20,450 bases of DNA from a virus, in the IMG/VR virus record IMGVR_UViG_3300045988_136351; one strand, 5' to 3'. Positions within the stretch are counted from its first letter, which is position 1. Each line of letters opens with the position of its first letter. The notes beneath the pieces are model-generated. The model had not been told where the DNA came from. It saw only the letters and a program-made list of their open reading frames with translations, and searched no databases. This document shows, in pieces, positions 1,126 through 18,169 of the stretch. The translations under genes were made by a program, and so were the position numbers.

Positions 1126-1294
1126 TCCTATAACTTTTGAATTTTATTTTACATTTGATAATTTAATTGTGTTACATTCTACAGACTATCAATTTGTTCA
1201 AGATGTATATAATAATTATTATGAAAAGTATGGTGATAAACATACATATTATTTGTATACAGTGGCTAAATATGATTTAAAAATGAGAACTTAA
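1109..1294 (+). CDS. Hypothetical early protein (61 aa)
   Basis: SD AAGGTGG lies 6 nt before the ATG at 1109. The ORF ends in the bidirectional terminator. Confidence 0.6.
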   Translation: MLLVDNPITFEFYFTFDNLIVLHSTDYQFVQDVYNNYYEKYGDKHTYYLYTVAKYDLKMRT

Positions 1295-1319
1295 AAGAGT
1301 GCACTAATGGCACTCTTTT
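1293..1319. terminator. Bidirectional intrinsic terminator between the convergent operons
   Basis: 10-bp stem aaaagagtgc / gcactctttt with a 7-nt loop, and A/T runs on both sides. It lies between the stop at 1292-1294 (+) and the stop at 1323-1325 (-). Confidence 0.8.
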
Positions 1320-1322
1320 ATT

Positions 1323-3061: not shown

Positions 3062-3071
3062 ATTTTACCTC

Positions 3072-3791
3072 CTAGAATATATTAAAAAATAATCCATATT
3101 CCTGTAATTCCGCGTATAACTCGTTTTCAATGGTAATAACCGCACGTCGTGAACCTTGTAACACTTCCGCCAGTGTTTGGATACCAATATTACCTTTACG
3201 CTTAAAGCTGTATTCTTCATGCCCTGTTGTGTCGTTTGCGCTCTTTGGTTTTGTGATTGTTTTAGCGATGTTATTAACATAGTCGTTTGTCTCAATGTCA
3301 ATACGTCCTTCCGGAGTTACAGACTGTAAAGCAATGCTCGTATCTTCTCCACTTGCCTGTGTGTTTCCTCGACTATCACGCGTATAAGTTTCTGTGTAGT
3401 TTGTGTTTGCGGTTGGGTCGTCCTGGTCTTGAAAAGGGATAGTTTTAAATAACGTATAATATCTATCCATATTGATTTCAAACCAGTGTTGCAATTCAAA
3501 TTTCCAATACGCATAGGTTTCTTGTCCGATTTCGTCAAACCAAAAGTGCTTTAGTATTCCCGTCTCTAAAGCTTTACGTTTTTCAGCATCATCATAAAAC
3601 GCATAGTTAAAATCGAAAATCTTTTTTCTTGCAATCTCTAGCACTTCCATATCGCTTAATTCATATTGAGCGTCAATTAATTCTGTGAATGCTAGGTTGT
3701 GACATACACCGCATATAGTTTCGGTATTTTCCGCAAGCACCGGACTTTGCAAAGTCAATAAATAGTTTGGTAGTTTTAATTTGTTAAACAT
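3072..3791 (-). CDS. Putative lower collar protein (phi29 gp11 position)
   Basis: Lies immediately downstream of the portal gene and is of similar size class. The track start is a GTG at 3800; the ATG at 3791 follows GAAGGTGA. The call rests on synteny only. Confidence 0.6.
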   Translation of the reverse strand: MFNKLKLPNYLLTLQSPVLAENTETICGVCHNLAFTELIDAQYELSDMEVLEIARKKIFDFNYAFYDDAEKRKALETGILKHFWFDEIGQETYAYWKFELQHWFEINMDRYYTLFKTIPFQDQDDPTANTNYTETYTRDSRGNTQASGEDTSIALQSVTPEGRIDIETNDYVNNIAKTITKPKSANDTTGHEEYSFKRKGNIGIQTLAEVLQGSRRAVITIENELYAELQEYGLFFNIF

Positions 3792-3792
3792 A

Positions 3793-4734
3793 TTAATCAC
3801 CTTCTTTTTTAGTTGCTAAATCATCTTTAAAATCTGAAAGTTTTGTATCACCATTTAATTCAATCAATTTTAAAATATCCTCAAAGTCCTCATATGGTGC
3901 AAACTCAACACTCGCGTTTAAATTAAATTTCTTGTTTAATTCTTCAATCGCTTTTTTACGCTCACTAAGCCAAATATTACGAGACGCAATAACCTGTTGA
4001 TTGTTCGCGTTAACCTCATCCGCTACTAATCGCTCTTTTTTGTCCATGTTCGCATTTTCAATTCCTAATAAAGTCATGCACTCACGCAAAATTGCTTGTT
4101 TCATGCCGTGCAATTCATCCGCAATAAAAGGTGCATTTGTTTGTAGTACTTTAACGTCTTCCGTTCTAAATCCTTTTGAAGTAAAGATCGTTTGAACCCC
4201 TTGTAAAATCTTTTTTATAAACACTTTGAATTGTTGTAACATACGTTTATCACCTGTAATGATGTACGGCGTCCATTGCATGGTCAAATTTTGGTCCATT
4301 GTGCGACTCGTTAAAGCTAGTTTTTTAGCGAAAAAGTTTAAGTATGGAAAAATACCAACATATAAAGGACTGTTCTTCATAATAACACACTCTTCATTTG
4401 ATAAATTCTTTTTAACAAGTGGACTTGTTGAAACGGTATGATATTCGGTTGGCATTTGATAGTGGTTTAACTTACCGCCTAATGTGATTTCACTACAGAT
4501 TAAGCCTAACCTTTCATCATCATAAAAGCCAATGTAACCACGTGTTTGTAAAACATATTCTAAATAGAATGTATTAATGGACTCCGGCAAACCTTTATAT
4601 TTAAACATATTTAAACTCAACATTTGTAAATACGTATAATAAATAAAATCAGCCTCTCCATTATTCATCGTAGCAACATCTACCGCGTTCCTACAATAAT
4701 CTGTGAACGAACTTGTATTATTCAATAAATCCAT
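3793..4734 (-). CDS. Portal / upper collar connector protein, phi29 gp10-like
   Basis: YLQMLSLNMFKYKGLPESINTFYLE...GYIGFY and LGIENANMDKKERLVADEV parallel phi29 gp10 (LQSLAYQLFEWENLPPTIN...GYVGFY; LGIKNANLEKKERMVTDEV). The SD-supported ATG is at 4734; the track start is 4743. Confidence 0.9.
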   Translation of the reverse strand: MDLLNNTSSFTDYCRNAVDVATMNNGEADFIYYTYLQMLSLNMFKYKGLPESINTFYLEYVLQTRGYIGFYDDERLGLICSEITLGGKLNHYQMPTEYHTVSTSPLVKKNLSNEECVIMKNSPLYVGIFPYLNFFAKKLALTSRTMDQNLTMQWTPYIITGDKRMLQQFKVFIKKILQGVQTIFTSKGFRTEDVKVLQTNAPFIADELHGMKQAILRECMTLLGIENANMDKKERLVADEVNANNQQVIASRNIWLSERKKAIEELNKKFNLNASVEFAPYEDFEDILKLIELNGDTKLSDFKDDLATKKEGD

Positions 4735-4766
4735 TTTAATCATCTCCTTTTAATTATATATTAAAT

Positions 4767-4792
4767 AAAAAAGGTTGAACCGTCAACCTTTT
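4767..4792 (-). terminator. Intrinsic terminator after the tail-knob gene
   Basis: Stem aaggttga / tcaacctt with loop accg, followed by a T-run on the - strand. Confidence 0.7.
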
Positions 4793-4796
4793 CCAT

Positions 4797-6986
4797 TTAA
4801 TGTACTTTTCTATTTAAGTAGTTACCGAACTTATCAATATCTTCATGTTGATATCTTTCGGTATTTACTTGATCATAATTTCCAACATTTTTATCATGCC
4901 ATAGTGTAATGCCATTATCAAATACACGTTTGATTTTTTCCAAGTCGTTCGGGTCGATATTTGTACCTTTGATATTACATTTTACAGTTTGAATATAATT
5001 CCATTTAGATTTGGTATGTAAATTTGGGTAGTCAATTGTATTAGTGGCATAACCGCGCATGTTCCATATTTGATTTAATTTATTACGGTATTCTTCAGTT
5101 GGCTTATACGCAAACAATATTAATGTGTTTAAATCTAAAGCTGTTTGTCGTAGTAAATCATTTGAGCCAGTAACAATACTATCAGCCGTGGCTTGTGCGT
5201 CATGGATACGTGCGTTGTAACTATCCATAGCGTTTTGAATATTCGTTTGATTTTGGTATCGTGTTGTTAATTGTCTTAATTGGTTTCCGATTTCGGTTGA
5301 TTGAGAATTAGCACTCGCTTGTGCATTTGCGTTTGCAAGTGCGTTTGCGTTTTGTAAGTTGGTTTGTTTTGTGTTAATTTGATTTTGCATGGCTGTTTGT
5401 CCAATGCCTAAACCAGCTCCAACCAAACTACCAACAGCACCACCAATATTACCGGTTAAAGCACTAGCTATACCACCACTTAAACCACCTATAGCGCCTA
5501 TGCTGGCATTTATCATATTTGATTTATTCTGTAGATCGTTCAAATTACTAGCTAAATTTGTATTACGTGCGGTTACACTTAAATTCAAATTATTTTGCAA
5601 GTTTGTTTGTGCACTTAACGCATTACCTGTAGCACTGGCTATAGCTGTATTTGTTTCATTTGAGCGTCTAATATTGGATAATCCAACGTTCATAGAGTTA
5701 CGTGAAGATTGTAGCATTAACGCGGTTGTGTCACTAATAATAGGTAAACTTGATTCATATTGAGATTCAAAAGAGTTATCTAAGTTTAACATAATATTAT
5801 TACCGATAGAATTTTTTTTAACTTTATAATTAATTGGAACTACATTCATTTTAGACGAGTTTGGTGAGCCAACAAAAGCGAATTGCATTTTATGTATATT
5901 TTCCCATAACTCATTTTTAAATAATTTTGTTGTTCCATTGCTATCGCTTAACACAAAATAACTATAAGGATACCATAGCATTTTAGTGTTGTCACTTGCT
6001 CCAATACCTAAATAACTCATAGCGTCTATTAACCGTGATTTTGCGAACTGGTCTGAACTTGAATCATACATACTTGACATAACATATGGCTTATAGGTCA
6101 GTATAGTATAGTCACCTTCCATTTTATTCTCAAAACAGTCTCTTTTTATGATGATTTGGTTATCTTCTACTACTAAACCGGGAATTGAATTCGTTACAAC
6201 AATAGAAACACATTTACCTACTAATACCTCCGATGTTCGAATTGCGTTCATGATCTCGCTTAAACCTGTAATACTTACAACCGTGCCGGATGTTGAACCT
6301 ATTTTCAATGTTTTTATGTCACCGCCTGTAATTCGTGAAAAAGGAAAAATATAATAATTAATTTGTGATGGACTTCCTAGTGTTCCATGTGTATATGTGT
6401 CTTTTCCGTCCATTGTACAAGTCATACCAATAATAGCATAACTTCTATCTTGATTCGGATCTAATCTAATATTGTTTTCACTAATCAAATCCGTACCAAT
6501 TTCCAAATTTTCGGGTTGTGTATTAATACATGGATAATATTGATTATCTTGTGTGTAAAATTGTGGTCTATGCTCATATGCGATGTATGACTCCATGAAA
6601 TTACTTTCAATCTCAAACCGCCAAGTCTGTATTACATCTGTTTCAAAACTAATACTAGTCGCATTGTCGTTTAGATATCCTAAACTTGTGATAAAGCAAT
6701 AAATCCATTTTGCTTTATTACCGGTATTTCCATTTTGATAAATCAAATAATTGTATAAACGTAGATCATCATAAACACCCGGTACGACTACCGTACCATC
6801 TTTTCTTTGATACGTGTAATTTTCAAATACAATATGATCGTAGTTATTAATAAAAAAATTAAATTGTTTTTCGGGGGTATCGAATGCACCCCAAAATGTG
6901 TTATTCATGGCGTCAATTTCTAAACCCTTCAATAAATAAATCTTACTTTGCGGTGTAAATTGACTGTTAACGACTCCTATACTCAT
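4797..6986 (-). CDS. Tail knob protein, phi29 gp9-like, with an expanded low-complexity region and a Gly-rich hydrophobic segment
   Basis: GNKAKWIYCFITSL...FETDVIQTWRFEI and the C-terminal WNYIQTVKC...FDNGITLWHDKNVGNY parallel phi29 gp9. The SD-supported ATG is at 6986; the track start is 6995. Confidence 0.9.
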   Translation of the reverse strand: MSIGVVNSQFTPQSKIYLLKGLEIDAMNNTFWGAFDTPEKQFNFFINNYDHIVFENYTYQRKDGTVVVPGVYDDLRLYNYLIYQNGNTGNKAKWIYCFITSLGYLNDNATSISFETDVIQTWRFEIESNFMESYIAYEHRPQFYTQDNQYYPCINTQPENLEIGTDLISENNIRLDPNQDRSYAIIGMTCTMDGKDTYTHGTLGSPSQINYYIFPFSRITGGDIKTLKIGSTSGTVVSITGLSEIMNAIRTSEVLVGKCVSIVVTNSIPGLVVEDNQIIIKRDCFENKMEGDYTILTYKPYVMSSMYDSSSDQFAKSRLIDAMSYLGIGASDNTKMLWYPYSYFVLSDSNGTTKLFKNELWENIHKMQFAFVGSPNSSKMNVVPINYKVKKNSIGNNIMLNLDNSFESQYESSLPIISDTTALMLQSSRNSMNVGLSNIRRSNETNTAIASATGNALSAQTNLQNNLNLSVTARNTNLASNLNDLQNKSNMINASIGAIGGLSGGIASALTGNIGGAVGSLVGAGLGIGQTAMQNQINTKQTNLQNANALANANAQASANSQSTEIGNQLRQLTTRYQNQTNIQNAMDSYNARIHDAQATADSIVTGSNDLLRQTALDLNTLILFAYKPTEEYRNKLNQIWNMRGYATNTIDYPNLHTKSKWNYIQTVKCNIKGTNIDPNDLEKIKRVFDNGITLWHDKNVGNYDQVNTERYQHEDIDKFGNYLNRKVH

Positions 6987-7015
6987 CTTAATCATCTCCT
7001 TTTATTTTATCTTAT

Positions 7016-7044
7016 AAAAAAATAGTTGAATGTTCAACTATTTT
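7016..7044 (-). terminator. Intrinsic terminator after the gp13-like gene; part of a 32-nt element duplicated at 11075..11106
   Basis: Stem atagttga / tcaactat with loop atgt, flanked by A7/T4 runs. It overlaps the stop codon at 7043-7045. Confidence 0.75.
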
Positions 7045-8251
7045 ATTTATCTTTGATATAGTCATATATCTCACGTGCTTTAGTTCCACGTTGTGGCTGG
7101 TTCGGGTCGGCTGGTCTTTCATAGTTTGCTAAAAACTCAATCGCTAGTGTGTACGGGTCAGCAGTCGATTTTGAAAAACTCGCAAAACTTTCGGGGTAGG
7201 TTGCTGTAGCAATCCATTGTTGATTGTTTTCCATTTCCCATTGGATTCGCTCGCATTCACCTTGACCAAACTTAGACACATCCGGGTAATATCCTTTTTC
7301 TTTTAGCCAGTCAATTATCTTTGTCCAAGGTGTCCATTGTACTAATCCGTACCCTTGAGACTCGACCGGTTGCGCAAATGGTACATCGCCTTGCCATCGG
7401 TTGGGGTTTACTGTAGATTCATAGAATGAGTTTCCTAAGATTCCAGCAACCGCGTTTGCGGTCCACCCTTTCGCTTTAAAAAACTGCCAAAAAGCAACCC
7501 AATTGTTTTTAGACTCATCTTCTGTAAGTGGTCGAGTGTTATTAATATCACCTGGTATAATCCATTTACCAACTGGCGCTGGTCCTGGCCCTGGTTGGAT
7601 TTCTTCTTTTGTTTTATAAAAACCAAAATCAATACCTAAACCATCTAACATAAAATAATGTTTAATATATTTGTAACTTGGTTGTGGTGGTGTTGGTGGT
7701 TGTCCACACTCAAACGTTTTCCATTGTTGACCGTATCCATTTACAATATTCGTATCATTCACATAAAATACATTATTCGGTAATTCTGAACCACTTAACG
7801 CATAACATTGATTACCATACCTACATGTAACACCATAATAAACGAGTCCCGCGTTCTGTGTAAATGTTTGGTCGATATGACAGTGGTCACCGGTAGCCAT
7901 CCCAGCCGTACCCGTATGATAAATTAGATCACCTTGTTTATATTGTGTAGCTGTTGGTGGATTTGGGTCATGAGTAAAACTAACTGTAACATAGCTTAAT
8001 CCGTTTGGTGTCCATACGGGATTATCTGAACTATAGGCGCGTGTATTACCTTGGTTATCACTATAACATAAATGACAACTAAATGGAGCATACACGGGTA
8101 CACGAACCTGCCCACTAATTGCATTGTCGAAGGGATGTCCACAACAGTGTGAATCAGCTGTAGGACTTGACCATTGCGTAATGTTCATTATTTCCATTGG
8201 AAAAAGGCAAACCTCATGCCCATCATGCATTAACTTTTGACCGGCTTTCAT
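7043..8251 (-). CDS. Tail-associated peptidoglycan hydrolase, phi29 gp13-like, with N-terminal M23-type peptidase and C-terminal lysozyme-like domain
   Basis: N-terminal half: FPMEIMNITQ ... GDLIYHTGTAGMATGDHCHID (M23 HxH signature). Pro-rich linkers GQPPTPPQP and QPGPGPAP follow. C-terminal half: GILGNSFYEST...GYGLVQWTP...FLANYERPADPNQPQRG (phage tail lysozyme signature). Confidence 0.88.
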   Translation of the reverse strand: MKAGQKLMHDGHEVCLFPMEIMNITQWSSPTADSHCCGHPFDNAISGQVRVPVYAPFSCHLCYSDNQGNTRAYSSDNPVWTPNGLSYVTVSFTHDPNPPTATQYKQGDLIYHTGTAGMATGDHCHIDQTFTQNAGLVYYGVTCRYGNQCYALSGSELPNNVFYVNDTNIVNGYGQQWKTFECGQPPTPPQPSYKYIKHYFMLDGLGIDFGFYKTKEEIQPGPGPAPVGKWIIPGDINNTRPLTEDESKNNWVAFWQFFKAKGWTANAVAGILGNSFYESTVNPNRWQGDVPFAQPVESQGYGLVQWTPWTKIIDWLKEKGYYPDVSKFGQGECERIQWEMENNQQWIATATYPESFASFSKSTADPYTLAIEFLANYERPADPNQPQRGTKAREIYDYIKDK

Positions 8252-8463
8252 AAATTTAACTCCTCCTCTATTATTGTTAGCTCGTGTAGTTTCTCTTTAC
8301 ATATATTATATCTTTCATAATCCACATCCTTTAGTATGTGCATAGCTTGCATGTAAAACTCGATGTAAAAATAAACGCTTAAACCTTCCGGTAAGCTATA
8401 TGGAATATCTTCCGGTTTTTTCATCTTATATATACTCGATAATTCGCATTCTTTTTTATCCAT
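8248..8463 (-). CDS. Hypothetical protein (71 aa)
   Basis: Strong SD AGGAGGT 7 nt upstream. The stop overlaps the next start (ATGA). Confidence 0.65.
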   Translation of the reverse strand: MDKKECELSSIYKMKKPEDIPYSLPEGLSVYFYIEFYMQAMHILKDVDYERYNICKEKLHELTIIEEELNL

Positions 8464-8492
8464 AATTAATACCTCCTACTATATAATAAAAT

Positions 8493-8516
8493 AAAACTAG
8501 CTTATGAGCTAGTTTT
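8493..8516 (-). terminator. Intrinsic terminator overlapping the stop of ORF 8509..8784
   Basis: Stem aaaactagct / agctagtttt with loop tatg. The sequence downstream on the - strand is T-rich. Confidence 0.65.
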
Positions 8517-8784
8517 TTTCTAAAATAATGGAAATACACGCGTCAAGATAGCATTGCCCTTTAATAGGCGTATCTGTTTTAAGCTTAGCGAAATATGGTA
8601 AATATTTCATAGCTAATTGAGTTGTTGCGTTTTGTAATTCATCTTTTGTTGTTGTAACAGTCACAGTATCCAACATTAAATAAACATAATCTATTAATTC
8701 ACTTGTGGCTGGGTCTGTGTTTGGTTGCATTAATTTACACATGTTATTATTTAATAATGATCTCTTAAGTGTATATCCTTCCAA
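8509..8784 (-). CDS. Hypothetical 91-aa ORF, possibly the C-terminal fragment of a broken tailspike gene
   Basis: TTG start with only a weak AAAGG SD. Its frame opens just upstream across a T7 homopolymer (- strand; A7 at 8797-8803 on +), 2 nt after the preceding ORF stops. Confidence 0.4.
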   Translation of the reverse strand: MEGYTLKRSLLNNNMCKLMQPNTDPATSELIDYVYLMLDTVTVTTTKDELQNATTQLAMKYLPYFAKLKTDTPIKGQCYLDACISIILEKN

Positions 8785-8786
8785 AT

Positions 8787-9068
8787 CTAAACCTTTAAAA
8801 AAACATAATCAGAATAATAAGGTGCATTTGGTAAATAGCTAAAATTATAGTTAAAATAATAATCTAATTTTTTAATATTTTTATCTTTGCTTTCTGTCAA
8901 AACATAATAAGTTTGTCCATATTTATTAATTGAAACATTATTTTCAACGGTTTGTGTTGGTTCTGTGGTCCAAGGATAAATATTTTCGCTTGTGTCACTG
9001 TACTTTTGTTGGATTTCAACTAAATTAACTTTACCTGTACCGCTGTTGATAATAGGTTTTGTATCCAT
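8787..9068 (-). CDS. Hypothetical 93-aa ORF, possibly an internal fragment of a broken tailspike gene
   Basis: There is no recognisable SD before the ATG at 9068. It overlaps the end of ORF 9020..10165 in another frame. The beta-rich sequence IINSGTGKVNLVEI resembles a beta-helix rung. Confidence 0.4.
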   Translation of the reverse strand: MDTKPIINSGTGKVNLVEIQQKYSDTSENIYPWTTEPTQTVENNVSINKYGQTYYVLTESKDKNIKKLDYYFNYNFSYLPNAPYYSDYVFLKV

Positions 9069-10165
9069 AATATTGTTTTCAAGCCATAAACTACACTCAT
9101 TTTTGCATTAAAAATTGCATTCACTTTTAATGTTGAATATTTAATATTAACAGTTGGCAAAACCGTGTTATTTGTGCTATACACATCAACTAAATATTTA
9201 TTATTGTTTGAAATATCACAATTATTAAATGTTATTTGTTGTTTCTCCACACTACTTATATTCGGTAGAAGAAAGGTGTTTGCATTATCATAAGTACTAA
9301 TATAACAATTATTAAAATCAAAATTATCAAGCGAACCAAATAATTCAATTGTTCCATTCGGCTCAAATTTTGAGAAAGTGCAATTATTAAATATAAATTT
9401 ACCACCAATATATCCAGCGATAATACTAGTTCTTTGTTTATAGTCATCATCATAATAAAATAATGTTTTATTAATACTATAAACCACACCATTGAATTCA
9501 TTAGTGGCATTAATAAGTTGTGTATTTTGCAATTTACATTCATCTAATAATAAATGCTCTAGCGTGTTAGTTCTAGATGAGATATTATTAAATAAATAAT
9601 TAATATCAACAAAATTACAATGCTTAAATTGAGATGAAAAAAAGTTTTCAGTTAGCGGTAAATTACTTTGTACATCACGCCCAAATGCGATATTACTAAA
9701 CACACAATTTTTTATTTGTTTTGTAAACGTGTTGTTGCCTAATATAATCGTGCTATTAGTACCTATTATATTTGTATCACTAATATTCGTTAGAGTTCCA
9801 TTAATTAAATACATTTTATTACTTAATAAAATATATTTATGGTTTGCGTTTGCACTACCAAAACATTCAGTAAATGCCCTGCTATCATCCGTAACACCAT
9901 CACCTACAGCTCCAAAGTTTTCGGGTAATAAGAAAGGAAAATCATTATTTTTTGTTACTTCCTGCCATAGTGTGCTTTTAAAAGTTTCTAGATTCATGTT
10001 AACTAGATCCTCAACCGTTGTGTTTAATGTTGGTTGTAATTCGGTCCATTTTTCATCAAACTTAGTATTTGTTGTTGTTTGAGCCAGTTCAATAACTTGA
10101 GGTTTTAACTCTTCCCATTTTTCATTGAATGTTGTTGTATGATCGTAGGTTTTAATTTTTCCCAT
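9020..10165 (-). CDS. Tailspike / pre-neck-appendage-like protein, right-handed beta-helix (pectin-lyase fold) part
   Basis: ENFGAVGDGVTDDSRAF is the classic N-terminal motif of pectate-lyase-type beta-helix tailspikes, and N-rich rung-like repeats follow. The ATG at 10165 abuts GAGGA with zero spacing, which makes a poor RBS. The N-terminus continues the FNxxWExLKP repeat of the upstream ORF. Confidence 0.7.
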   Translation of the reverse strand: MGKIKTYDHTTTFNEKWEELKPQVIELAQTTTNTKFDEKWTELQPTLNTTVEDLVNMNLETFKSTLWQEVTKNNDFPFLLPENFGAVGDGVTDDSRAFTECFGSANANHKYILLSNKMYLINGTLTNISDTNIIGTNSTIILGNNTFTKQIKNCVFSNIAFGRDVQSNLPLTENFFSSQFKHCNFVDINYLFNNISSRTNTLEHLLLDECKLQNTQLINATNEFNGVVYSINKTLFYYDDDYKQRTSIIAGYIGGKFIFNNCTFSKFEPNGTIELFGSLDNFDFNNCYISTYDNANTFLLPNISSVEKQQITFNNCDISNNNKYLVDVYSTNNTVLPTVNIKYSTLKVNAIFNAKMSVVYGLKTILWIQNLLSTAVQVKLI

Positions 10166-10375
10166 TCCTCATTAAATTTATTAGTTGTTGTTTCTTCCAC
10201 TAATGTAATAACTTGTGGTTTTAAAATATCCCATTGTTTTTTAAATTCGGCGTCTGTTGTATCCTGTGCCAATTTAATAACAACCGGTTTTAAATCTTCC
10301 CATGCCTTATTGAATGTTTCAATTGTTAAATTTGTAACTAGTTCAATTACTTGAGGTTTTAGAATTGACCATTTA
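10032..10375 (-). repeat. Diverged 69-nt (23-aa) tandem repeat array spanning the 10105..10710 / 9020..10165 junction
   Basis: The Trp-codon anchor (CCAT on +) falls at 10045, 10114, 10161, 10230, 10299 and 10368. Spacings are 69, 47, 69, 69 and 69 nt. Confidence 0.85.
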
Positions 10376-10710
10376 TAGTCGAATTCCTCATCTGTCCATT
10401 CTTTCGTTGCTTGCTCTAATAATGGCACTACTGTATTCCATGCCTCAATTGTTTCATTCATAGCCGTTACGAGTGTATAAACGTACCCTTGTAAATAGTT
10501 TAAACATTGATAGACATTCATACCCGTATTGAATGCACTCACATATTGCTGAGCTAAATTCTTACCACTTAACTTTAAAGGCTCGAACTCCGGTAAAAAG
10601 TTATTGATCTCAAATTCTTCATGTAACTCTGAACCGGAAATACTTTCGCTTTCACTCGTCGATGTTTCACTTGAATTTAAAATATTTTGTTTTATTTTAT
10701 CAAAATCCAT
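10105..10710 (-). CDS. Fibre/tailspike N-terminal anchor plus repeat rod; paralog of 11826..12650 and truncated by a frameshift
   Basis: NFLPEFEPLKLSGKNLAQQYVSAFNTGMNVYQCLNYLQGY closely matches NFLPKFDEVKLSGKNLAQNYVSEFNTGMNIYQCLNYLQGY of the 274-aa protein. 23-aa repeats follow. The SD-supported ATG is at 10710; the track start is a GTG at 10719. Confidence 0.7.
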   Translation of the reverse strand: MDFDKIKQNILNSSETSTSESESISGSELHEEFEINNFLPEFEPLKLSGKNLAQQYVSAFNTGMNVYQCLNYLQGYVYTLVTAMNETIEAWNTVVPLLEQATKEWTDEEFDYKWSILKPQVIELVTNLTIETFNKAWEDLKPVVIKLAQDTTDAEFKKQWDILKPQVITLVEETTTNKFNEEWEKLKPTIIQQHSMKNGKS

Positions 10711-10711
10711 A

Positions 10712-11047
10712 CTATTCACCTTCTTTATATCCGATCAGTTCTTTTAGTTTATCCGGTAAGATATCACTATTGATTTTAGAAATGTTTTCGATAATACTAA
10801 CCACCTCTGTAATAATTGCATATGTACAAATAACCGGCACTAAATCAACTCCAAAAGGTAAAGTTAAATAAGTTTCCGCATAGTTAATAGCAATACCTAA
10901 AGTGTAACAAAAGATAAAGCCAACCTTTTTAAAAAGCCCGTCTCTTAATTTGTTCGATTTGATTTGTTCACCTTCTCGTAAAGCTCCAACGATACCTGTC
11001 ACCAAATCCAAACCATTAAAAACCAATGCTACTAAAATAATTTTCAT
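10712..11047 (-). CDS. Holin, three transmembrane segments (Phage_holin_4-like)
   Basis: MKIILVALVFNGLDLVTGIVGAL..., then GFIFCYTLGIAINY and LVPVICTYAIITEVVSII, with a charged C-terminus. SD AGAGGTGA lies 6 nt before the ATG at 11047; the track start is 11065. Confidence 0.8.
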   Translation of the reverse strand: MKIILVALVFNGLDLVTGIVGALREGEQIKSNKLRDGLFKKVGFIFCYTLGIAINYAETYLTLPFGVDLVPVICTYAIITEVVSIIENISKINSDILPDKLKELIGYKEGE

Positions 11048-11077
11048 TTTAATCACCTCTTTCATTTTCTATAATAT

Positions 11078-11106
11078 AAAAAAATAGTTGAATGTTCAAC
11101 TATTTT
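11078..11106 (-). terminator. Intrinsic terminator after ORF 11107..11826; second copy of the 32-nt element
   Basis: Sequence is identical to 7013..7044 (tataaaaaaatagttgaatgttcaactatttt). Confidence 0.75.
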
Positions 11107-11826
11107 CTAATTTCCTATTTTTCCTTGTCCTAACCATTTTCCATTTTTACGAATTCGGCTCGTACCTTGGTTTTCTTTTCCTACTTTATCATAACTATAT
11201 TTTGCTATATCCTTCCATGAGTTTGATTTTCGTATCTTTAAAAATCCACTGTCTTTATTCAATGATTTTAATACGCCACTTTTACGAATACCCCACGGTC
11301 TAAAGTCGGGAATAACTTGTTGAATACTGTAAATATTCGAGTGTGGAAAAGCTACATTCTCACCTTGTAATTCAATTTTAACGTGTGTAGTATCATTTGA
11401 TAATTGAATAAATTTACTCCACTGGCTCGCTCTTGCCGTACCATCCCATCCTTGCATATAGTTTAAAGGCATTTGTCCGGTATGCGTAAATATCTTTTCT
11501 CTTAATAATTGTGTCCATGTGGCTTGATTGTCTGTTGACTTAGAAACAATAATAAAATAGTTATATGTATCAGTAGTATCACCAACATAATAACCATCCG
11601 CCACATACTGCTGAGCGTCTGTTATAGCATATCCGACTAAATCTAAAATAAATGTTACACCATAATTTCCATTATCCGAGAAATTAATACCTTTACCATA
11701 TCCGGACGCGTGCGCTGTTGCTAATGGTGCTCCAAACGGTCCTGTGTTGTCCGGTGAGCCACCTAAAACAACATTTGCATACGGTCCGGTGTTATCAAAT
11801 GCACCATAAAAATATTGCCATGCCAT
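11107..11826 (-). CDS. Hypothetical structural protein (239 aa), candidate distal receptor-binding partner of the 274-aa fibre
   Basis: Its start overlaps the upstream stop (TAATG), implying translational coupling. It lies in the late structural block. The C-terminus has three IRK(S/N)(G/N) motifs. No family was recognised. Confidence 0.6.
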   Translation of the reverse strand: MAWQYFYGAFDNTGPYANVVLGGSPDNTGPFGAPLATAHASGYGKGINFSDNGNYGVTFILDLVGYAITDAQQYVADGYYVGDTTDTYNYFIIVSKSTDNQATWTQLLREKIFTHTGQMPLNYMQGWDGTARASQWSKFIQLSNDTTHVKIELQGENVAFPHSNIYSIQQVIPDFRPWGIRKSGVLKSLNKDSGFLKIRKSNSWKDIAKYSYDKVGKENQGTSRIRKNGKWLGQGKIGN

Positions 11827-12650
11827 TATACACCACCAGCCAAATCATTTTCACTAGTACCGTTATTTGTACGGATGTATGAACCGCCGTCAACACTTCC
11901 ACCAAAAATATTAATATTACCTGTAGCGATGTTTCTACCGTCTGTCATATGACCGTCAAAAATCGTATCACCCGTTTGTGTCCAAGCTCCACTATTCTTT
12001 AAGTTAGTTAACAAGATAGATAAATCGTCATACATTTTACCGATTTTAGAATCTTGATTATCAATATAATTATTAATAGTATTGTTAACATATTGCGTTA
12101 ACTCCGGTTTTAATTCTTCCCATGACTGGTTGAATTGATTGATTGTTGTTTGTTTCGTCAACTCAATCACTTGAGGTTTTAATTCTTCCCATGACTCATT
12201 GAATTGATTAATTGTTGTTTGTTTCGTTAGTTCAATAACTTGAGGTCTTAATTCTTCCCATTTCTCATTGAATTGATTAATCGTTGTTTGTTTTGTCAAC
12301 TCAATAACTTGTGGTTTTAATTCCGCCCAGTGCTTATCAAATTCACTTTTAGACAGTTCAATACAATATTTAATCATTTCCTCGATGTTTTTATTCCATT
12401 TTTTAACAACATCGTTAACAGCTTTAACCAGCCAACCAATATAACCTTGTAAATAATTTAAACATTGGTAAATATTCATACCCGTGTTAAATTCACTCAC
12501 ATAATTTTGAGCTAAATTTTTACCGCTTAATTTTACCTCGTCAAATTTCGGTAAAAAATTATCAATATCTATTTTGATTTCTTGGTTTTGCTCAAACTGT
12601 TCTTTGATTGTTTTACTTGCTGATTGTTTCTCTTTAGTTTTTCTTAACAT
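11826..12650 (-). CDS. Fibre protein with conserved N-terminal anchor domain and a 23-aa repeat rod
   Basis: Strong SD GAAGGTGGTGA. Repeat units are near-identical (WEELRPQVIELTKQTTINQFNE...). The N-terminal domain is paralogous to that of 10105..10710. It occupies the phi29 head-fibre/appendage position after the capsid gene. Confidence 0.7.
   Translation of the reverse strand: MLRKTKEKQSASKTIKEQFEQNQEIKIDIDNFLPKFDEVKLSGKNLAQNYVSEFNTGMNIYQCLNYLQGYIGWLVKAVNDVVKKWNKNIEEMIKYCIELSKSEFDKHWAELKPQVIELTKQTTINQFNEKWEELRPQVIELTKQTTINQFNESWEELKPQVIELTKQTTINQFNQSWEELKPELTQYVNNTINNYIDNQDSKIGKMYDDLSILLTNLKNSGAWTQTGDTIFDGHMTDGRNIATGNINIFGGSVDGGSYIRTNNGTSENDLAGGV
12106..12335 (-). repeat. Near-identical 69-nt tandem repeats (about 3.3 copies) inside the fibre gene
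   Basis: The anchor CCCAT/CCCAG on + falls at 12119, 12188, 12257 and 12326, exactly 69 nt apart. Units are mostly identical at nucleotide level. Confidence 0.9.
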
Positions 12651-12701
12651 GATCTCACCACCTTCAAATACATACTAATACAAAATAAATAAAAATAAAA
12701 G

Positions 12702-12729
12702 AAAAAGAGTTAAATTAATAACTCTTTTT
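12702..12729 (-). terminator. Intrinsic terminator downstream of the major capsid gene
   Basis: 11-bp stem aaaaagagtta / taactcttttt with a 6-nt loop, followed on the - strand by a T-rich tract. A GC-richer hairpin at 12766..12790 precedes it. Confidence 0.75.
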
Positions 12730-12805
12730 CCTAAGTTGCAATTTACCTAAATAATAGAAAGGAGGGGTGCCATGTTCTACTCATGACACCGATATTATAA
12801 CATAA

Positions 12806-14155
12806 CTATACGTTATATACAACCTTAATATCACAAGTTACCTCGGAAACTGTATCTTTAATTGTTACAGTTGCTAAACCTTCCGCGTCAATAGCCTCTA
12901 AACATTCAATTTTAACGTGTTTCAAATCGCTTTCGATTGTAGCTTTAACTTTATCATCAACACTAGATGTAGCCGTCAAACTATACTTAGCATTTAAACC
13001 ACTTGTCTGAACTGTAAATGGTACGGTAATAGTCGCACCTTTACGAACTTCAACAACTTGTGGGTTTGAGTAAATAGCTGTAACTTTTTCCTCAACATTT
13101 CCGGATACAAACGCAATCGCATTTGCAAAACGGCTTGTTGCGATACCTTCCCAGTGGTGCAAGAAGTAATTCCAATATAATCCTTTAGCATTATACGCAA
13201 CACCTACGCTATATTTTTGGTCAAATACTCTATAAATTTCTGAATCACACACAATTGCCTCAATAGTACCTTGTGCCGTGCTTGGTAAAGTCGGTAGCAC
13301 TAATACATGAGTTTTGAATTGTGCAAACTCTAATTGGAATGTCTGAGCTAACCAATCAATATTTAAGTAGCTATTTGTTTTACCGTTTAGGATGACATAA
13401 ATATCATCGTATTCGTTTTGCTTTGTGACAGCCATAGCGTTATATTCGTTTGTTGGTTCTGTTAAATAAGATACGTATTCTGTAATTTTACGCGCTAACT
13501 CTTTCGCTGTATCCGTATCTGTTACGGCGTTCGTATTTACGATCTTCATATGTCCATTTTCATAATGAGTGACTAAAGCGGATTTCATATAATTATAATC
13601 ATCCTTATTATCACCATTATACATAGAATCAACAATTCGAGCAATCAAACTGTTTACACCATCCCAAGTTACAAAATACTTTCTTAAATCATCATCTGTA
13701 ATTGTAGCTGGATAGTATGACTTTCTGTTTACTACATAGAAAGCTGTTTTAATGTCTGGTAAACTTCTCTTAAAAAGAGTGTTTTCCGCGTCCGCCTGAT
13801 CGTATGCGTGCTCTTTAGCGCACTCAACGAAATACTCTTCCATAGTATAACCTAAAGGCATGTTCTCCATTTTAAATGGCGCTAGTTTGTTCGTTAAAAT
13901 ATTACGGTGTGCAATCACTTTACCAATACGTGTAGCTAAATTCATGAACTCAACACCTAAAGTATCCGGATATTCTAATAAACCGTTCATGAACTCTAAA
14001 GAGCTTGTTTCGTTTGGGTCACTAATTGTACTTCTAAAATTGCTAGAACTCATTGCGTACATAGCACTGGCGACTTCTTGACCGGTTGGTTCATGGTCCA
14101 TACCTAAGTCATTTTGTAACGTTTTAGTTACGTCTTTTCCTGTTGTTTTTGACAT
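12806..14155 (-). CDS. Major capsid protein, phi29 gp8-like, with a C-terminal Ig-like (BIG2-type) domain
   Basis: GLYWNYFLHHWEGIATSRFANAIAFVSGNV parallels phi29 gp8 [30 protein letters not shown]. At 449 aa it is nearly the same length. The beta-rich C-terminal 90 aa are typical of BIG2 domains. Confidence 0.93.
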   Translation of the reverse strand: MSKTTGKDVTKTLQNDLGMDHEPTGQEVASAMYAMSSSNFRSTISDPNETSSLEFMNGLLEYPDTLGVEFMNLATRIGKVIAHRNILTNKLAPFKMENMPLGYTMEEYFVECAKEHAYDQADAENTLFKRSLPDIKTAFYVVNRKSYYPATITDDDLRKYFVTWDGVNSLIARIVDSMYNGDNKDDYNYMKSALVTHYENGHMKIVNTNAVTDTDTAKELARKITEYVSYLTEPTNEYNAMAVTKQNEYDDIYVILNGKTNSYLNIDWLAQTFQLEFAQFKTHVLVLPTLPSTAQGTIEAIVCDSEIYRVFDQKYSVGVAYNAKGLYWNYFLHHWEGIATSRFANAIAFVSGNVEEKVTAIYSNPQVVEVRKGATITVPFTVQTSGLNAKYSLTATSSVDDKVKATIESDLKHVKIECLEAIDAEGLATVTIKDTVSEVTCDIKVVYNV

Positions 14156-14172
14156 CTAAATCACCTCTTTCA

Positions 14173-14448
14173 TTAAATACCTAATTTTCTTAAATCCATT
14201 GGCGCTTCATGTTTTGGTTTTTCTCCGCCGGATTTTTCAACGCCAATTTGCATAAATAGTTTAGAGTTTGCCTCTGTTAATGAGGTATTCTTTTCAACTA
14301 ATTTTGTATTTTCAGCTTTTAAATTGTCCAATTCTGTATAAGTTTTTTCAACCTCCGCTCGCATGTCATTTAGCATGGTTGAGCGCTCCGCTTGGTCTTC
14401 AACTGTCAATACTTCCGTAAACTTGTTTCTAAGTTCATCACGTTCCAT
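14173..14448 (-). CDS. Scaffolding protein, phi29 gp7-like
   Basis: 91-aa coiled-coil protein directly upstream of the capsid gene. ANSKLFMQIGV parallels phi29 gp7 SNSKLFRQIGL. Confidence 0.85.
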   Translation of the reverse strand: MERDELRNKFTEVLTVEDQAERSTMLNDMRAEVEKTYTELDNLKAENTKLVEKNTSLTEANSKLFMQIGVEKSGGEKPKHEAPMDLRKLGI

Positions 14449-14473
14449 TTTTTACACATCCCTTCTATTTATT

Positions 14474-14502
14474 AATATATGCTAATAATATTTTAAAGTC
14501 AA
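14474..14502 (-). promoter_or_regulatory. Candidate late promoter upstream of the scaffold gene
   Basis: On the - strand: -35 TTGACT (14502-14497), 17-nt spacer, -10 TATATT (14479-14474). It lies immediately downstream of the terminator at 14511..14534. Confidence 0.45.
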
Positions 14503-14504
14503 TA

Positions 14505-14658
14505 AAAAATAAAACCCTCTTTTACGAGGGTTTTAAAAATATAGGTTGTAAAGTTTAAAGTGTTACCAGCTAGATTACTATTACTAATTATGTTGCTAGC
14601 ACGTTTCACCGCGAGTAAACCTAACATACATGTCTGATTTCCGTTCTTTATTCCTTAC
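14505..14658 (-). ncRNA. Non-coding RNA of about 150 nt with its own promoter and terminator; candidate prohead/packaging RNA (pRNA)
   Basis: No ORF is present. A near-consensus promoter lies just upstream and a terminator at the 3' end. A predicted 5'/3' helix pairs GUAAGGAAUAAAG (14658-14646) with CUUUAAACUUUAC (14560-14548), giving 11 of 13 pairs. Internal stacked hairpins are also predicted. All phi29-like phages need a pRNA and none is otherwise accounted for here. Confidence 0.5.
14511..14534 (-). terminator. Intrinsic terminator closing the ncRNA unit
   Basis: Stem aaaaccctc / gagggtttt with a 6-nt loop, followed on the - strand by ATTTTTTATT. Confidence 0.8.
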
Positions 14659-14664
14659 GGTCAT

Positions 14665-14693
14665 ATAATACCATGTTATTTACTTTTTGCCAA
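14665..14693 (-). promoter_or_regulatory. Strong sigma-A-type promoter driving the ncRNA unit
   Basis: On the - strand: -35 TTGGCA (14693-14688), 17-nt spacer ending in TGg, -10 TATTAT (14670-14665). It overlaps the 3' end of ORF 14676..14897. Confidence 0.65.
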
Positions 14694-14897
14694 ATCTTCT
14701 TTAACTTTATCTTTAACAAATTGACTAAACTTTTTCTTTTTCAATAAATCTTCAATATAATCAACGACTTCAACTTCATTTTTATTGACACAAACACAGT
14801 ATTTATTAACATGATCTCGATACCATTTATTTCGATTTTCTTTTGACTTCTCACTCAACATTGTCATCACATCCTTTTTCATCATCTTCTTTTTCAT
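14676..14897 (-). CDS. Small basic protein (73 aa or shorter), possible DNA-binding regulator
   Basis: Lys-rich N-terminus followed by a strand-helix-helix-like pattern (KYCVCVNK..EVVDYIEDL..FSQFVKDKVKEDL). It is the last early gene before the early/late boundary. Several in-frame ATGs make the start uncertain. Confidence 0.55.
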   Translation of the reverse strand: MKKKMMKKDVMTMLSEKSKENRNKWYRDHVNKYCVCVNKNEVEVVDYIEDLLKKKKFSQFVKDKVKEDLAKSK

Positions 14898-15291
14898 TCT
14901 GCCATACTAACGGCATACCTAATATATAAGTATGTACAAAGTCATTCGTTTCATGGTTCACAATACTCCAGCCGTTTTCTAAATATTGGTTTAGCATATC
15001 AATATCTTTTCGATAAGCGCTATAATCATAATCTTTTATTGATCTAACAACTACTACTTTATTTTTGAGTGGAGGATTTCCGAACATAATTTCATTAAAT
15101 TCTTTTAGAGTCTTATCACACTTTTTAAATATTGCGTTGTCACGATGATGAACTTCATATGATAAACTATCAAGTTCTTTATTCAAATGTTTATAATTAT
15201 CCTTTAAGGATTCATATTTACAATATATAAACAAACAAAAAACTGCTAACACAATAATACACATTAATATCATTAAAAACATAAAATCCAT
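14851..15291 (-). CDS. Membrane-anchored early protein (146 aa) with N-terminal TM, coiled coil and C-terminal domain
   Basis: SD AAAGGAG lies 8 nt before the ATG at 15291; the track start at 15378 is a TTG. The TM segment is FMFLMILMCIIVLAVFCLFIY, followed by a heptad-like segment. Confidence 0.65.
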   Translation of the reverse strand: MDFMFLMILMCIIVLAVFCLFIYCKYESLKDNYKHLNKELDSLSYEVHHRDNAIFKKCDKTLKEFNEIMFGNPPLKNKVVVVRSIKDYDYSAYRKDIDMLNQYLENGWSIVNHETNDFVHTYILGMPLVWQNEKEDDEKGCDDNVE

Positions 15292-15438
15292 TTTTTCTAC
15301 TCCTTTATGATCCAAATAATCATTAATACCATTCCTATAATATATACAACAAATAGAAATGTTACACTTAAACAGCAAAATGCCATAAATAAATAATACA
15401 ATATATTTGTTAAAACACTTATCACTTTATCAACTTCC

Positions 15439-17265
15439 TTATCTACTTTTAATACTGAATTGTCTATCGACTAATACAATACCACCAGGAACATGTGTTT
15501 TCTTTAAGCAATCATTAATTACATTTCCAACTCTAAAATTATCATATGTTACATTCTGTTTAGCTTTTTGCGTCATACCAGCGCACTTTACATTCAAATA
15601 ATAACAAACACCCTCACGGATATAATACAAATTATCTTTACAGTCGTTTTCACTAATAAATTCTTGTTGGTGCTCTACATATTCCTTATAACTGATTTCG
15701 ATTTCTTCCACATAGGATTTAGCACCAATAAAATAAGATCGTGTAAACACTGATTCTAAACCCCAATAACCTAATTCCTTATCGTCAATAATATCTTTAA
15801 TAGCGTCCGGAACTTGTGTACCTACTAAATGTATTGAATCCGTATCAATATATGCGACTCTATGGATACCTACTTTTTGCGCGGTACTAATTGTATATTT
15901 ACGCGCGTATGCTGTTACAAATTCACCGTAAGGTAAATAAATAGGATCCCTAAATTGTTCGTCAATAACCTCTTTCACTTCTCCATCTTCATAAGTAGTA
16001 AACATAGGATCGTGAAGTCTTAATACGCCATCATCTTTATCAATAAATGGAATTTTAGGTGTAATATTTGGGTTCGTTGCGAACTTGCCGTAAACTGAAT
16101 TTAATTGTCTTTTGGCAATAAAACGTTGTGCACCTTTTGAGTTTTTCTTAACTTCCATTTGTTCATCTATAAATTGCCGTGCAATTCCTACACATCCTCT
16201 AAATTTATAGCCATTAATGAACTCTACATCATAAATATCATATTGTTCATTAAATAACTGCCAATCAACACTCGTAACAGTCATTCTAACGATATCACCG
16301 TTTGAACTATCTACGTATTTTTTACTACCAAAAAATCGACTAAACTTATCTAAGCTAATGCATGGTATATGATCTTTTTTAATGTCAAAAGCAAAACTAA
16401 CAACACCTACCCATAGTGGATATTCATCATCCTGTTGGTATTCACCTTCAAAATATATAGGTGTATCATACGGCAATAATTCATAATACATACGACTCGG
16501 AAAAAGTGAATTTACGTCAAATACTATCCCTTGTCCTATCTCTTTTTCTTTTAGTTCCGGGTTTGCCCAAACGAAACCGCCACTATAAGCCGGTCTTAAA
16601 TCACTATCCACACTCATTTCTAAAGGTGGGAATATCTTTTCAAAACTCATAGACAGTGTTTTCTTGAAAGCCTCAAAACTACAGCTTGTGGCTGTCATTT
16701 TATTAAATCCAAGCTTAAAACATTCATTCAATGCCATACCTTCAATGTCGATATCATTAAAAAGATAATCCACCTCATGTGGTGTTAGCTTGTGTCCTAT
16801 TTCACGTTTAGCCTTATAATCTAATTTCAATTTACGTATTGGTAAATTAAAATCATGTGCGATCTTCTCAATACTAAATGGGATTAATTTAAAGCTATCC
16901 CATATTGTAGTTTTTGTTGACCGATAAATTGAGTACTTCCACCATATTTCAATAGAGTACCACAAACCAGTATTAGAGATTATTGTTTTAAAACACCCGG
17001 TTTTAGGCTTGTCCGAATATTCATAACCATTTGATAATAACCAACTAACAATAAACTCACCATCAAAAGCAAGATTATGAAAATATAATTTACGTGTTTT
17101 CTGTTGACACCACTCAAAAAAACCATATATAGAATTTCCATATTCTTTTATACTTAAATCACTTACCAGGCTAGCGCCCCAAGCCCATACCCTACAGTCT
17201 AAAGGGTCGGTTGTAGTCTCAAAGTCGCACGCCCAAATTTCTTTGGGCTCTTTTTTCTTTGTCAT
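15439..17265 (-). CDS. Protein-primed family B DNA polymerase, phi29 gp2-like
   Basis: Exo I DFETTT, Exo II HNLAFDGEF, Exo III YLFNDIDI, motif A DVNSLFPS, motif B KRQLNSVYGKFA, motif C YIDTDSIH, and KCAGM. SD AAGGGGGT. Confidence 0.97.
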   Translation of the reverse strand: MTKKKEPKEIWACDFETTTDPLDCRVWAWGASLVSDLSIKEYGNSIYGFFEWCQQKTRKLYFHNLAFDGEFIVSWLLSNGYEYSDKPKTGCFKTIISNTGLWYSIEIWWKYSIYRSTKTTIWDSFKLIPFSIEKIAHDFNLPIRKLKLDYKAKREIGHKLTPHEVDYLFNDIDIEGMALNECFKLGFNKMTATSCSFEAFKKTLSMSFEKIFPPLEMSVDSDLRPAYSGGFVWANPELKEKEIGQGIVFDVNSLFPSRMYYELLPYDTPIYFEGEYQQDDEYPLWVGVVSFAFDIKKDHIPCISLDKFSRFFGSKKYVDSSNGDIVRMTVTSVDWQLFNEQYDIYDVEFINGYKFRGCVGIARQFIDEQMEVKKNSKGAQRFIAKRQLNSVYGKFATNPNITPKIPFIDKDDGVLRLHDPMFTTYEDGEVKEVIDEQFRDPIYLPYGEFVTAYARKYTISTAQKVGIHRVAYIDTDSIHLVGTQVPDAIKDIIDDKELGYWGLESVFTRSYFIGAKSYVEEIEISYKEYVEHQQEFISENDCKDNLYYIREGVCYYLNVKCAGMTQKAKQNVTYDNFRVGNVINDCLKKTHVPGGIVLVDRQFSIKSR

Positions 17266-17283
17266 ACTACAACCCCCTTTACA

Positions 17284-18117: not shown

Positions 18118-18146
18118 TTTAAACACCCCCTTTTAAGCCAAAATAA

Positions 18147-18169
18147 AAGGGTGTTTGGCTAACACCCTT
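18147..18169 (-). terminator. Intrinsic terminator or attenuator between the SSB and terminal-protein genes
   Basis: 9-bp stem aagggtgtt / aacaccctt with a 5-nt loop, and T-rich sequence downstream on the - strand. Confidence 0.65.

Follow-up and report, generated by a model that had tools for sequence, protein, structure and literature searches.

The second fibre gene and its four open reading frames

The stretch of DNA analysed here (the window; IMG/VR virus record IMGVR_UViG_3300045988_136351) is a linear sequence of 20,450 nucleotides (nt) with 32.5% G+C and genes mostly on the minus strand, and it is the complete or near-complete genome of a phi29-like podophage. It carries two paralogous fibre genes, fib1 and fib2. 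The present analysis concerns the second of these, fib2, which extends over 10710..8509 on the minus strand and is divided in the window among four open reading frames (ORFs), as follows (aa, amino acids).

10105..10710, minus strand: piece 1, 201 aa, virion-anchor module and repeat units 1-4; in frame with relatives for residues 1-192 (10710..10135)
9020..10165, minus strand: piece 2, 381 aa, last two repeat units, helical neck and right-handed parallel beta-helix (pectate-lyase-like), assigned by Pfam, AlphaFold and Foldseek
8787..9068, minus strand: piece 3, 93 aa, end of the beta-helix and start of a conserved C-terminal domain, assigned by tblastn with intact relatives (frame -1 over 9131..8793)
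8509..8784, minus strand: piece 4, last ~91 codons of the conserved all-beta C-terminal domain, ending ...CISIILEKN and a stop, assigned by tblastn (frame -3 over 8805..8515)

Pattern scans of IMG/VR retrieved dozens of related contigs of 15-20 kilobases (kb) at 82-88% DNA identity, and all useful comparisons were drawn from metagenomic contigs of this kind. At 20 of the 25 IMG/VR loci that were retrieved by the anchor ORF, translation from the same anchor start yields one uninterrupted ORF of 786-961 aa. When the 817-aa protein of one such relative (L026) was aligned to the window by tblastn, it mapped as four collinear pieces in frames -3, -2, -1 and -3: residues 1-192 on 10710..10135 (frame -3), residues 272-626 on 10138..9056 (frame -2), residues 608-721 on 9131..8793 (frame -1) and residues 718-814 on 8805..8515 (frame -3). 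Over residues 1-192, piece 1 shares 98-100% identity with the 786-961-aa ORFs, and its last nine residues (QHSMKNGKS) are an out-of-frame tail. Piece 2 is out of frame at both ends, over its first ~9 and its last 25 residues, and homology in the frame of piece 3 spans ~9098 to ~8797. There are three frame breaks in fib2, each with a net loss of 1 nt modulo 3. On the strength of this collinearity, the window ORFs of 201, 381, 93 and 91 aa are taken to be fragments of one gene.

A first-pass annotation made from the letters of the window had proposed a single receptor-binding protein with anchor, repeats and a pectin-lyase-type beta-helix, split at one place. The proposal of a single protein agrees with the undivided ORF of the relatives. 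Its predicted length of 560-740 aa was too short, since the intact protein of the relatives has 786-961 aa and also covers the ORFs 9068..8787 and 8784..8509. The break at the repeat array was correctly located, while two further breaks, at ~9100 and ~8800, had been missed. Repair of the array break alone would not restore the protein, because two more -1 breaks lie downstream.

In the relatives the intact product has an N-terminal virion anchor, a series of 23-aa repeats, a pectate-lyase-type beta-helix and the conserved C-terminal domain. The anchor comprises the N-terminal ~110 aa (...LPxFxxLKLSGKNLAQQYVSAFNTGMNVYQCLNYLQGY...) and in fib2 is 51% identical to the N-terminus of fib1. Elsewhere in the clade it is fused to many distal modules, namely a coiled coil only, a coiled coil plus knob, repeats plus C-terminal domain, or a beta-helix. 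This ~100-aa anchor is thus seen joined to at least four unrelated distal modules across the clade.

Residues 83-317 of the 381-aa ORF match Pfam PF12708 (Pect-lyase_RHGA_epim) with 30.2 bits (cut-off 27). The AlphaFold model of this ORF has a mean predicted local distance difference test score (pLDDT) of 78.9, and the score exceeds 90 for residues ~80-355 and falls under 50 for residues 1-31 and 360-381; the 22 low-scoring residues at the end fall inside the 25-residue out-of-frame tail. A Foldseek search with this model gave 40 PDB matches at E <= 1e-3, which include the tailspikes of CBA120 (TSP3), phi92 (gp150), Sf6 and AS12. Its matches also comprise alginate epimerases (AlgE4), the polysaccharide lyase RbmB and the tailspikes of HK620 and of Acinetobacter phages. 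With a 650-aa homolog as query, BFVD gave as best match 'Pectate lyase [Podoviridae sp. ctnWS46]', a protein of 815 aa with 52% identity; tailspikes and depolymerases came next. The C-terminal ~140 aa are predicted to be all-beta (homolog P0096), and no PDB sequence relative of this domain was found. These models suggest that the intact fib2 product is a polysaccharide depolymerase, and we presume this function in what follows.

Proteins of ~667 aa encoded on ~50-kb contigs share, over their C-terminal two-thirds, 77-85% identity with the beta-helix and C-terminal module (for example at 5416-7428 of L010, IMGVR_UViG_3300045988_089763, 48.6 kb; also P0032-P0085). These proteins have a different N-terminus and are encoded beside a tail protein of lysozyme/CHAP type with 763 aa. 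It appears that the ~20-kb podophages and a much larger phage, which presumably infects the same host, have exchanged the receptor-binding module.

The repeat array was then analysed with reference to its Trp codons. On the minus strand the TGG codons start at 10371, 10302, 10233, 10164, 10117 and 10048, so that the anchors of the 23-aa (69-nt) repeat are spaced by 69, 69, 69, 47 and 69 nt. The same spacing, with one unit of 47 nt, had been given by the first-pass annotation with coordinates off by 3 nt, a difference of no consequence. The six 69-nt units share 51-67% DNA identity, as compared with 30 +/- 5.6% for random pairs of 69-mers from fib2; the periodicity is real but diverged. Tandem Repeats Finder, when run on the window, did not report the fib2 array because its units are too diverged; among the fibre arrays it listed that of fib1 (12106-12323) alone. 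The 23-aa repeats are predicted to be helical, with low confidence for a monomer. When the PDB was searched by sequence, the repeat stalk matched engineered OspA proteins, and this match was dismissed as an artefact of repeat composition.

ORF 10710..10105 has 201 aa when read from its ATG (the ORF tool gives 204 aa from a GTG at 10719), and it overlaps ORF 10165..9020, which is in the -1 frame, by 61 nt, just as first described. The ATG at 10165 lies 1 nt past GAGG, in keeping with the original remark that it has no Shine-Dalgarno (SD) spacing. A further remark, that the repeat motif runs on through the break, did not hold: PTIIQQ in the frame of piece 1 and HTTTF in the frame of piece 2 read the same nucleotides, ATACAACAACATTC, and for this reason the motif cannot continue in both frames. 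Homology to the relatives follows the first frame up to ...PTIIQ and the second from TTTFNEKW on.

Three lesions and a nearly identical sister contig

The three breaks are located as follows; the sister is contig L289, described below.

10135..10138, minus strand: break 1, deletion junction with ACAA microhomology within ATCAT-ACAA-CAACATTC; tblastn frame changes from -3 to -2 at 10135/10138
9100..9104, minus strand: break 2, 1-nt deletion, A6 to A5; window GC-AAAAA-TG on the coding strand, all closely aligned relatives A6 or GA5, sister A6
8797..8803, minus strand: break 3, 1-nt deletion, T8 to T7; window G-TTTTTTT-AAAGG on the coding strand, sister T8, most relatives TTTTTGTT

For break 1, the DNA of the window was compared with that of the relatives L023, L025, L026, L027, L029, L031 and L038. 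In these, the left flank has its breakpoint between ...CCTACGATCATACAA and TTATCAACAGAT..., and the right flank, which follows after 2-7 extra 69-nt units, has it between ...AAAACACAAACAACAACAA and CATTCAATGAAAAATGG. The window joins the two as CCTACGATCAT-ACAA-CAACATTCAATG. As compared with L026, the closest intact relative, 229 nt are lost (3 x 69 + 22; 1 modulo 3). The two flanks have ACAA alone in common, inside an (ACA)n tract of Thr codons, and a junction 7 nt earlier in this tract would have stayed in frame. Judged from these flanks, break 1 is an illegitimate, microhomology-mediated deletion. Two other descriptions of the junction, a loss of 22 nt from one unit and a register-preserving recombination between units, were rejected, as 229 nt are missing and the ends meet at ACAA. 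Thus, the earlier idea of an out-of-register deletion between repeats is retained in so far as the array did suffer an out-of-frame deletion which uncouples the anchor from the enzymatic part; its size of 22 nt has to be replaced by 229 nt relative to L026.

For breaks 2 and 3, the most informative sequence is the sister. At 90% clustering, the 381-aa ORF groups with one other protein, P0017 (496 aa), in which pieces 2, 3 and 4 of the window are read through continuously (...NAKNECSLWLENNIMDTKP..., ...SDYVFFKGLDLEGY...). Its contig, L289 (ENA ERZ28575677, sample SAMEA4545396), aligns with the window over 19.5 kb at an identity of 99.91%. The 15 substitutions between them are spread over the genome, with none in fib2, and the only two indels, apart from a 100-N gap of L289 in the repeat array, are an additional A at window 9099 and an additional T at window 8796. 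When one A and one T were added to the window sequence accordingly, an open frame of 543 codons was obtained from 10138 to 8509, matching P0017. Because the 99.9% sister keeps A6 and T8 and the repair reopens the frame, the A5 and T7 runs of the window are considered derived and very recent.

The lesions are also concentrated. fib2 makes up 10.8% of the genome and contains 7 of its 44 homopolymers of at least 6 nt, the remaining 37 lying elsewhere, and all three lesions fall inside it (p ~0.001 under uniform placement). When the ORFs of relatives were mapped back genome-wide, no frame-broken coding gene was found elsewhere in the window.

The broken gene is not confined to one assembly. The exact 201-aa and 381-aa products are encoded on ENA ERZ28575032 (SAMEA4545397; 19,660 nt; 100% identical to window 396-20055). 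A Logan contig of 4,090 nt from run SRR24653432, which agrees with window 7015-11104 at 100% identity, encodes them too, and the window itself, a JGI/IMG copy, is the third of three assemblies with a broken fib2. A search for the exact junction pattern gave 0 matches in IMG/VR and 0 in JGI metagenome contigs; the contig of the window evidently lies outside both collections.

These data bear on the possibility that fib2 is in fact intact, its array having been collapsed by the assembler and two homopolymers miscalled. In its favour, fib2 arrays do defeat short-read assembly (L288 and L289 each have a 100-N gap in the array); two of the three breaks are homopolymer length changes, a classic type of error; and a common set of reads may underlie the JGI/IMG and ENA contigs. 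Collapse in a k-mer graph, however, needs a shared k-mer, and the junction flanks share just the 4 nt ACAA, in an array whose units are merely 51-67% identical. Moreover, three assembly sources agree, including the Logan contig of a run with an unrelated accession; no further indel against the sister was seen over 19.5 kb despite the 37 long homopolymers outside fib2; and all other genes are unbroken. An artefact is hence improbable, and the assembly collapse within the repeats that the first-pass annotation had allowed for is unlikely in view of the 4-nt overlap and of the identical sequence in three assemblies.

The states of fib2 in related genomes and its genomic setting

A survey was made of 80 related loci (L207-L286), anchored on the neighbouring lysozyme gene. 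About 54 of the 80 genomes are of ~15-17 kb and have neither fib1 nor the gene of 239 aa that follows it; their only fibre is a short one of 175-313 aa, encoded after the holin gene. The other ~26, of ~20 kb, have fib1 and the 239-aa gene before the holin gene and fib2 after it. Among these two-fibre genomes fib2 is intact in 19, shortened in frame by loss of the helix in two (L043, 337 aa; L034, 453 aa) and disrupted in five, the window included. The disrupted forms other than that of the window, with one more found outside IMG/VR, are the following.

L032/L225: TAA right after PTII, and loss of the helix
L045: large out-of-frame deletion
L046: TAA and deletion
L251: nearly the whole gene deleted
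L287 (outside IMG/VR): TGG changed to TAG in repeat 3

Clustering of the 201-aa ORF at 90% points in the same direction. The cluster holds 30 distinct sequences; of its 14 other listed members, 12 are ORFs of 158-192 aa that cover the N-terminal part only and end within the array, and two (133 aa) are fragments of the C-terminal domain. Within this set of sequences, loss or truncation of fib2 is common and has evidently arisen in several ways.

Some of the stop alleles recur. A TAA after ...PTII (codon 192) was seen on at least five contigs and in two N-terminal backgrounds (MNFDEIK... and MDFDKIK...), the remainder of the gene being helix-less, in frame and otherwise undamaged. This allele is represented by the contig L032/L225 (IMGVR_UViG_3300029830_000066) and by the proteins P0002, P0004, P0005, P0020 and P0023. 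Stops recur too at the FKK/Q and KKQ/W codons of repeat 3. The repeated alleles may reflect either recurrent mutation or recombination of old alleles.

The lengths of called ORFs must be read with care in this family. Beta-helix ORFs of 427-666 aa on ~20-kb contigs were considered as signs of a regular two-gene layout, and this was rejected, the examined cases being the nonsense allele of L287 and the 100-N gaps of L288 and L289. Scaffolded short-read assemblies of the clade often break inside the 69-nt array, and gene callers then report a beta-helix ORF cut short to 427-666 aa; because array gaps shorten the called ORFs, database lengths for the fib2 family are unreliable.

Upstream of fib2 the window carries the following genes.

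11826..12650, minus strand: fib1, first fibre paralog, 274 aa, intact, with a homologous anchor and its own 69-nt array (12106-12323)
11107..11826, minus strand: 239-aa protein directly after fib1, present in all two-fibre relatives; PHROG 7782, function not assigned
10712..11065, minus strand: holin gene, between fib1 with the 239-aa gene and fib2; Pfam PF05105

fib1 is 98% identical to the corresponding stop-to-stop frame of L043 and stands upstream of the holin gene in the two-fibre relatives too; it is presumably the working receptor-binding fibre. It ends in a Gly-rich tail (...NDLAGGV), and its stop overlaps the start of the 239-aa gene by 1 nt. The two products could form a two-component fibre, with a stalk and a separately encoded tip. 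The last ~200 nt of the 239-aa gene show ~70% identity to a hypothetical gene of Enterococcus phage EF62phi.

Pfam domains were assigned on L047, the identical ENA contig, which corresponds to exactly the 19,660 nt between two inverted terminal repeats (ITRs). They include Phi29_MCP, DNA_pol_B_2 (protein-primed), Phage_connector, phi29_gp9_C (gp9-like tail knob) and Podovirus_Gp16 (gp16-like packaging ATPase), together with a tail lysozyme, an SH3_5 endolysin and a holin; the lower collar gene was recognised by PHROG match. The ITRs occupy 1-395 and 20056-20450 of the window and are perfect over 395 nt (100% complementary), each with ~2.8 tandem copies of a 20-nt unit (Tandem Repeats Finder rows 110-166 and 20285-20341). 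A length of 395 nt is long for a phi29-like phage, and this could be either a real ITR or an end-duplication by the assembler.

The capsid protein is just ~33% identical to those of cultured phi29-like phages of Cytobacillus, Enterococcus, Bacillus and Clostridium, and on this ground the phage is assigned to an uncultivated clade. Searches of GenBank phages, by blastn with 8700-12700 and by tblastn with the two ORFs, gave no close relative and only weak pectate-lyase matches, besides the match of 200 nt of the 239-aa gene to EF62phi. In a scan of genome collections for the host, no prophage was found and the sole match was a related phage contig binned in a human-gut metagenome-assembled genome, 'Clostridia bacterium'. 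Both this copy and the EF62phi match are weak hints to the host. The sample tags COST17 and ZEEV15 look like those of human stool studies, and the phage probably comes from the human gut; a literature search with the sample accessions gave no match.

Probable inactivation of an accessory tailspike and its alternatives

The frame breaks, the unbroken relatives and the sister contig together make it very likely that 10710..8509 is the recently inactivated gene of an accessory second tailspike. About three repeat units and 22 nt would have been lost by an illegitimate deletion joined at ACAA, and slippage would have removed one A from the A6 run and one T from the T8 run. The fib2 product would then be at most a 201-aa anchor-plus-stalk stub without a distal domain. 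The beta-helix fragment would be translated poorly, if at all, and would have no means of attachment to the virion. Because its last turns and the C-terminal domain are gone and its start lies 1 nt past GAGG, it would probably neither fold as a spike nor get to the virion. The phage would still adsorb through the intact fib1, which shares the anchor module, and the 239-aa protein. Loss of the spike may be tolerated, possibly even favoured, because relatives have lost fib2 repeatedly and the ~16-kb sub-clade manages with one short fibre.

Several points weigh against recent inactivation or limit it. The array of L289 is replaced by a 100-N scaffold gap exactly over window 10168..10127, so that the comparison with the sister covers fib2 outside its array. 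Independence of the three assemblies is judged by accession number alone, and the JGI/IMG and ENA copies may go back to shared reads. Internal stops and substitutions relative to the sister are absent from the pieces, which fits a very recent inactivation but would by itself be compatible with continued use of the fragments too. Finally, three lesions within a divergence of 15 single-nucleotide polymorphisms (SNPs) are many for neutral decay, which hints at hot spots or selection.

If the fragments were kept for separate functions, piece 1 might serve as an anchor stub capping the attachment site and piece 2 as a free, soluble depolymerase released at lysis. Every fragment is indeed an open frame, piece 2 starts with ATG, the ~16-kb relatives normally have short fibres (175-313 aa) built on this anchor, and in-frame versions of fib2 without the helix exist. 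Yet the ATG of piece 2 has an SD spacing of 1 nt, and break 2 strips the beta-helix ORF of its last turns and of the whole C-terminal domain, which all apparently functional versions keep, including the helix-less ones. The stub in turn ends in frameshifted residues and lacks a distal domain, and recency (0 substitutions against the sister) explains the open frames. Preservation of the gene as a functional split thus has little probability.

It is most improbable that programmed -1 frameshifting or transcriptional slippage still gives some full-length tailspike, although the required direction is -1 at all three breaks, breaks 2 and 3 lie in A/T runs and break 3 lies on the canonical heptamers U_UUU_UUA (8802) and U_UUA_AAG (8799) in the frame of piece 3. 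Heptamers of the X_XXY_YYZ type are absent from the zones in which the frames could be fused at break 1 (64 nt) and break 2 (88 nt). No stimulatory structure was detected past break 3: the stretch 8810-8700 (111 nt), which runs from just upstream of the heptamers to ~95 nt downstream, has a minimum free energy of -11.5 kcal/mol (z = 0.48), and 128 of 200 shuffled sequences fold as well. Three sequential inefficient events would give a negligible yield of full-length protein, and a shift at break 1 would leave a malformed repeat unit of 16 aa. Nor is the two-frame layout conserved, the relatives being continuous and the 99.9% sister being in frame at breaks 2 and 3.

The A-runs GGGAAAAATTAAAACC near break 1, once suggested as a site of rescue by frameshifting, are unsupported in this role, there being no X_XXY_YYZ heptamer in the 64-nt zone and no canonical in-frame slippery pattern. 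Rescue of fib2 by FRAMESHIFTING was rejected as well, three -1 events being needed and breaks 1 and 2 having no slippery site. The contraction of T8 to T7 itself creates both overlapping heptamers of break 3. They are judged coincidental, because there is no downstream structure and two other breaks lie upstream.

Recent inactivation of fib2 may have been selected or merely tolerated. We consider it rather unlikely that loss of the second tailspike is adaptive and recurrent and not a matter of neutral decay. A selected loss is made plausible by three hits within 15 SNPs and by the many independent alleles. If it were adaptive, shedding of depolymerase spikes would be repeatedly selected, for example by a switch of host surface glycan or by the cost of fast adsorption in a structured habitat (compare lambda Stf), and the repeat array and the homopolymers would act as mutational handles.

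The closest precedent is the stf gene of phage lambda. As in lambda PaPa, an accessory fibre gene is split by frameshift in a viable phage in which another receptor-binding protein carries infection; laboratory lambda reportedly has a 1-bp deletion in stf. The window differs from this case in that it represents an uncultivated phi29-like podophage and not a siphophage, in that there are three lesions, the first an array deletion, in that the spike has an enzymatic beta-helix and in that the evidence comes from natural metagenomic populations and not from laboratory passage. Originally, lambda stf was annotated as orf401 plus orf314, and after evolution of lambda in a biofilm-like environment stf was mutated in 19 of 21 isolates, 15 of the 19 mutants being frameshifts, several of them at one hot-spot position (PMC2762979).

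In design, the intact proteins of the relatives, with anchor, neck, beta-helix and C-terminal domain, resemble the beta-helix tailspike depolymerases (CBA120 TSP3, phi92 gp150, Sf6, HK620). They differ from the solved tailspikes in that sequence identity is only 10-14% and in that the fib2 stalk and all-beta C-terminal domain have no solved counterpart by sequence; the window gene, in addition, is broken. A likeness to the pre-neck appendage gp12 of phi29 is also seen, since fib2 encodes a tail appendage of a phi29-type genome near the tail and collar genes, with the order anchor, beta-helix and C-terminal domain. Unlike gp12, the two paralogous fibres in the window have a common anchor module, and no gp12 chain appeared in the PDB sequence search (E <= 1) or in the top 50 Foldseek matches.

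Changes in homopolymer length put phage receptor-binding genes out of frame elsewhere, for example at the polyG tracts of Campylobacter phages. Unlike these tracts, the runs of fib2 are short (A6, T8) and relatives do not keep them as runs, most having TTTTTGTT at break 3. As the run changes are accompanied by a non-reversible deletion of 229 nt, fib2 has little likeness to a reversible switch.

That an accessory fibre gene of a phage turns into a pseudogene is a known kind of event, and its mechanism here is not new. For annotation, the ORFs 10710..10105, 10165..9020, 9068..8787 and 8784..8509 should be merged into one pseudogene, and be listed neither as four hypothetical proteins nor as a frameshift site. 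For the biology of the clade, the locus would be a dated natural case of a phage discarding one of its two receptor-binding proteins, with a sister 15 SNPs away that keeps the downstream part intact. A population with intact, in-frame-shortened and knocked-out fib2 could show whether accessory depolymerase spikes carry a cost in the gut.

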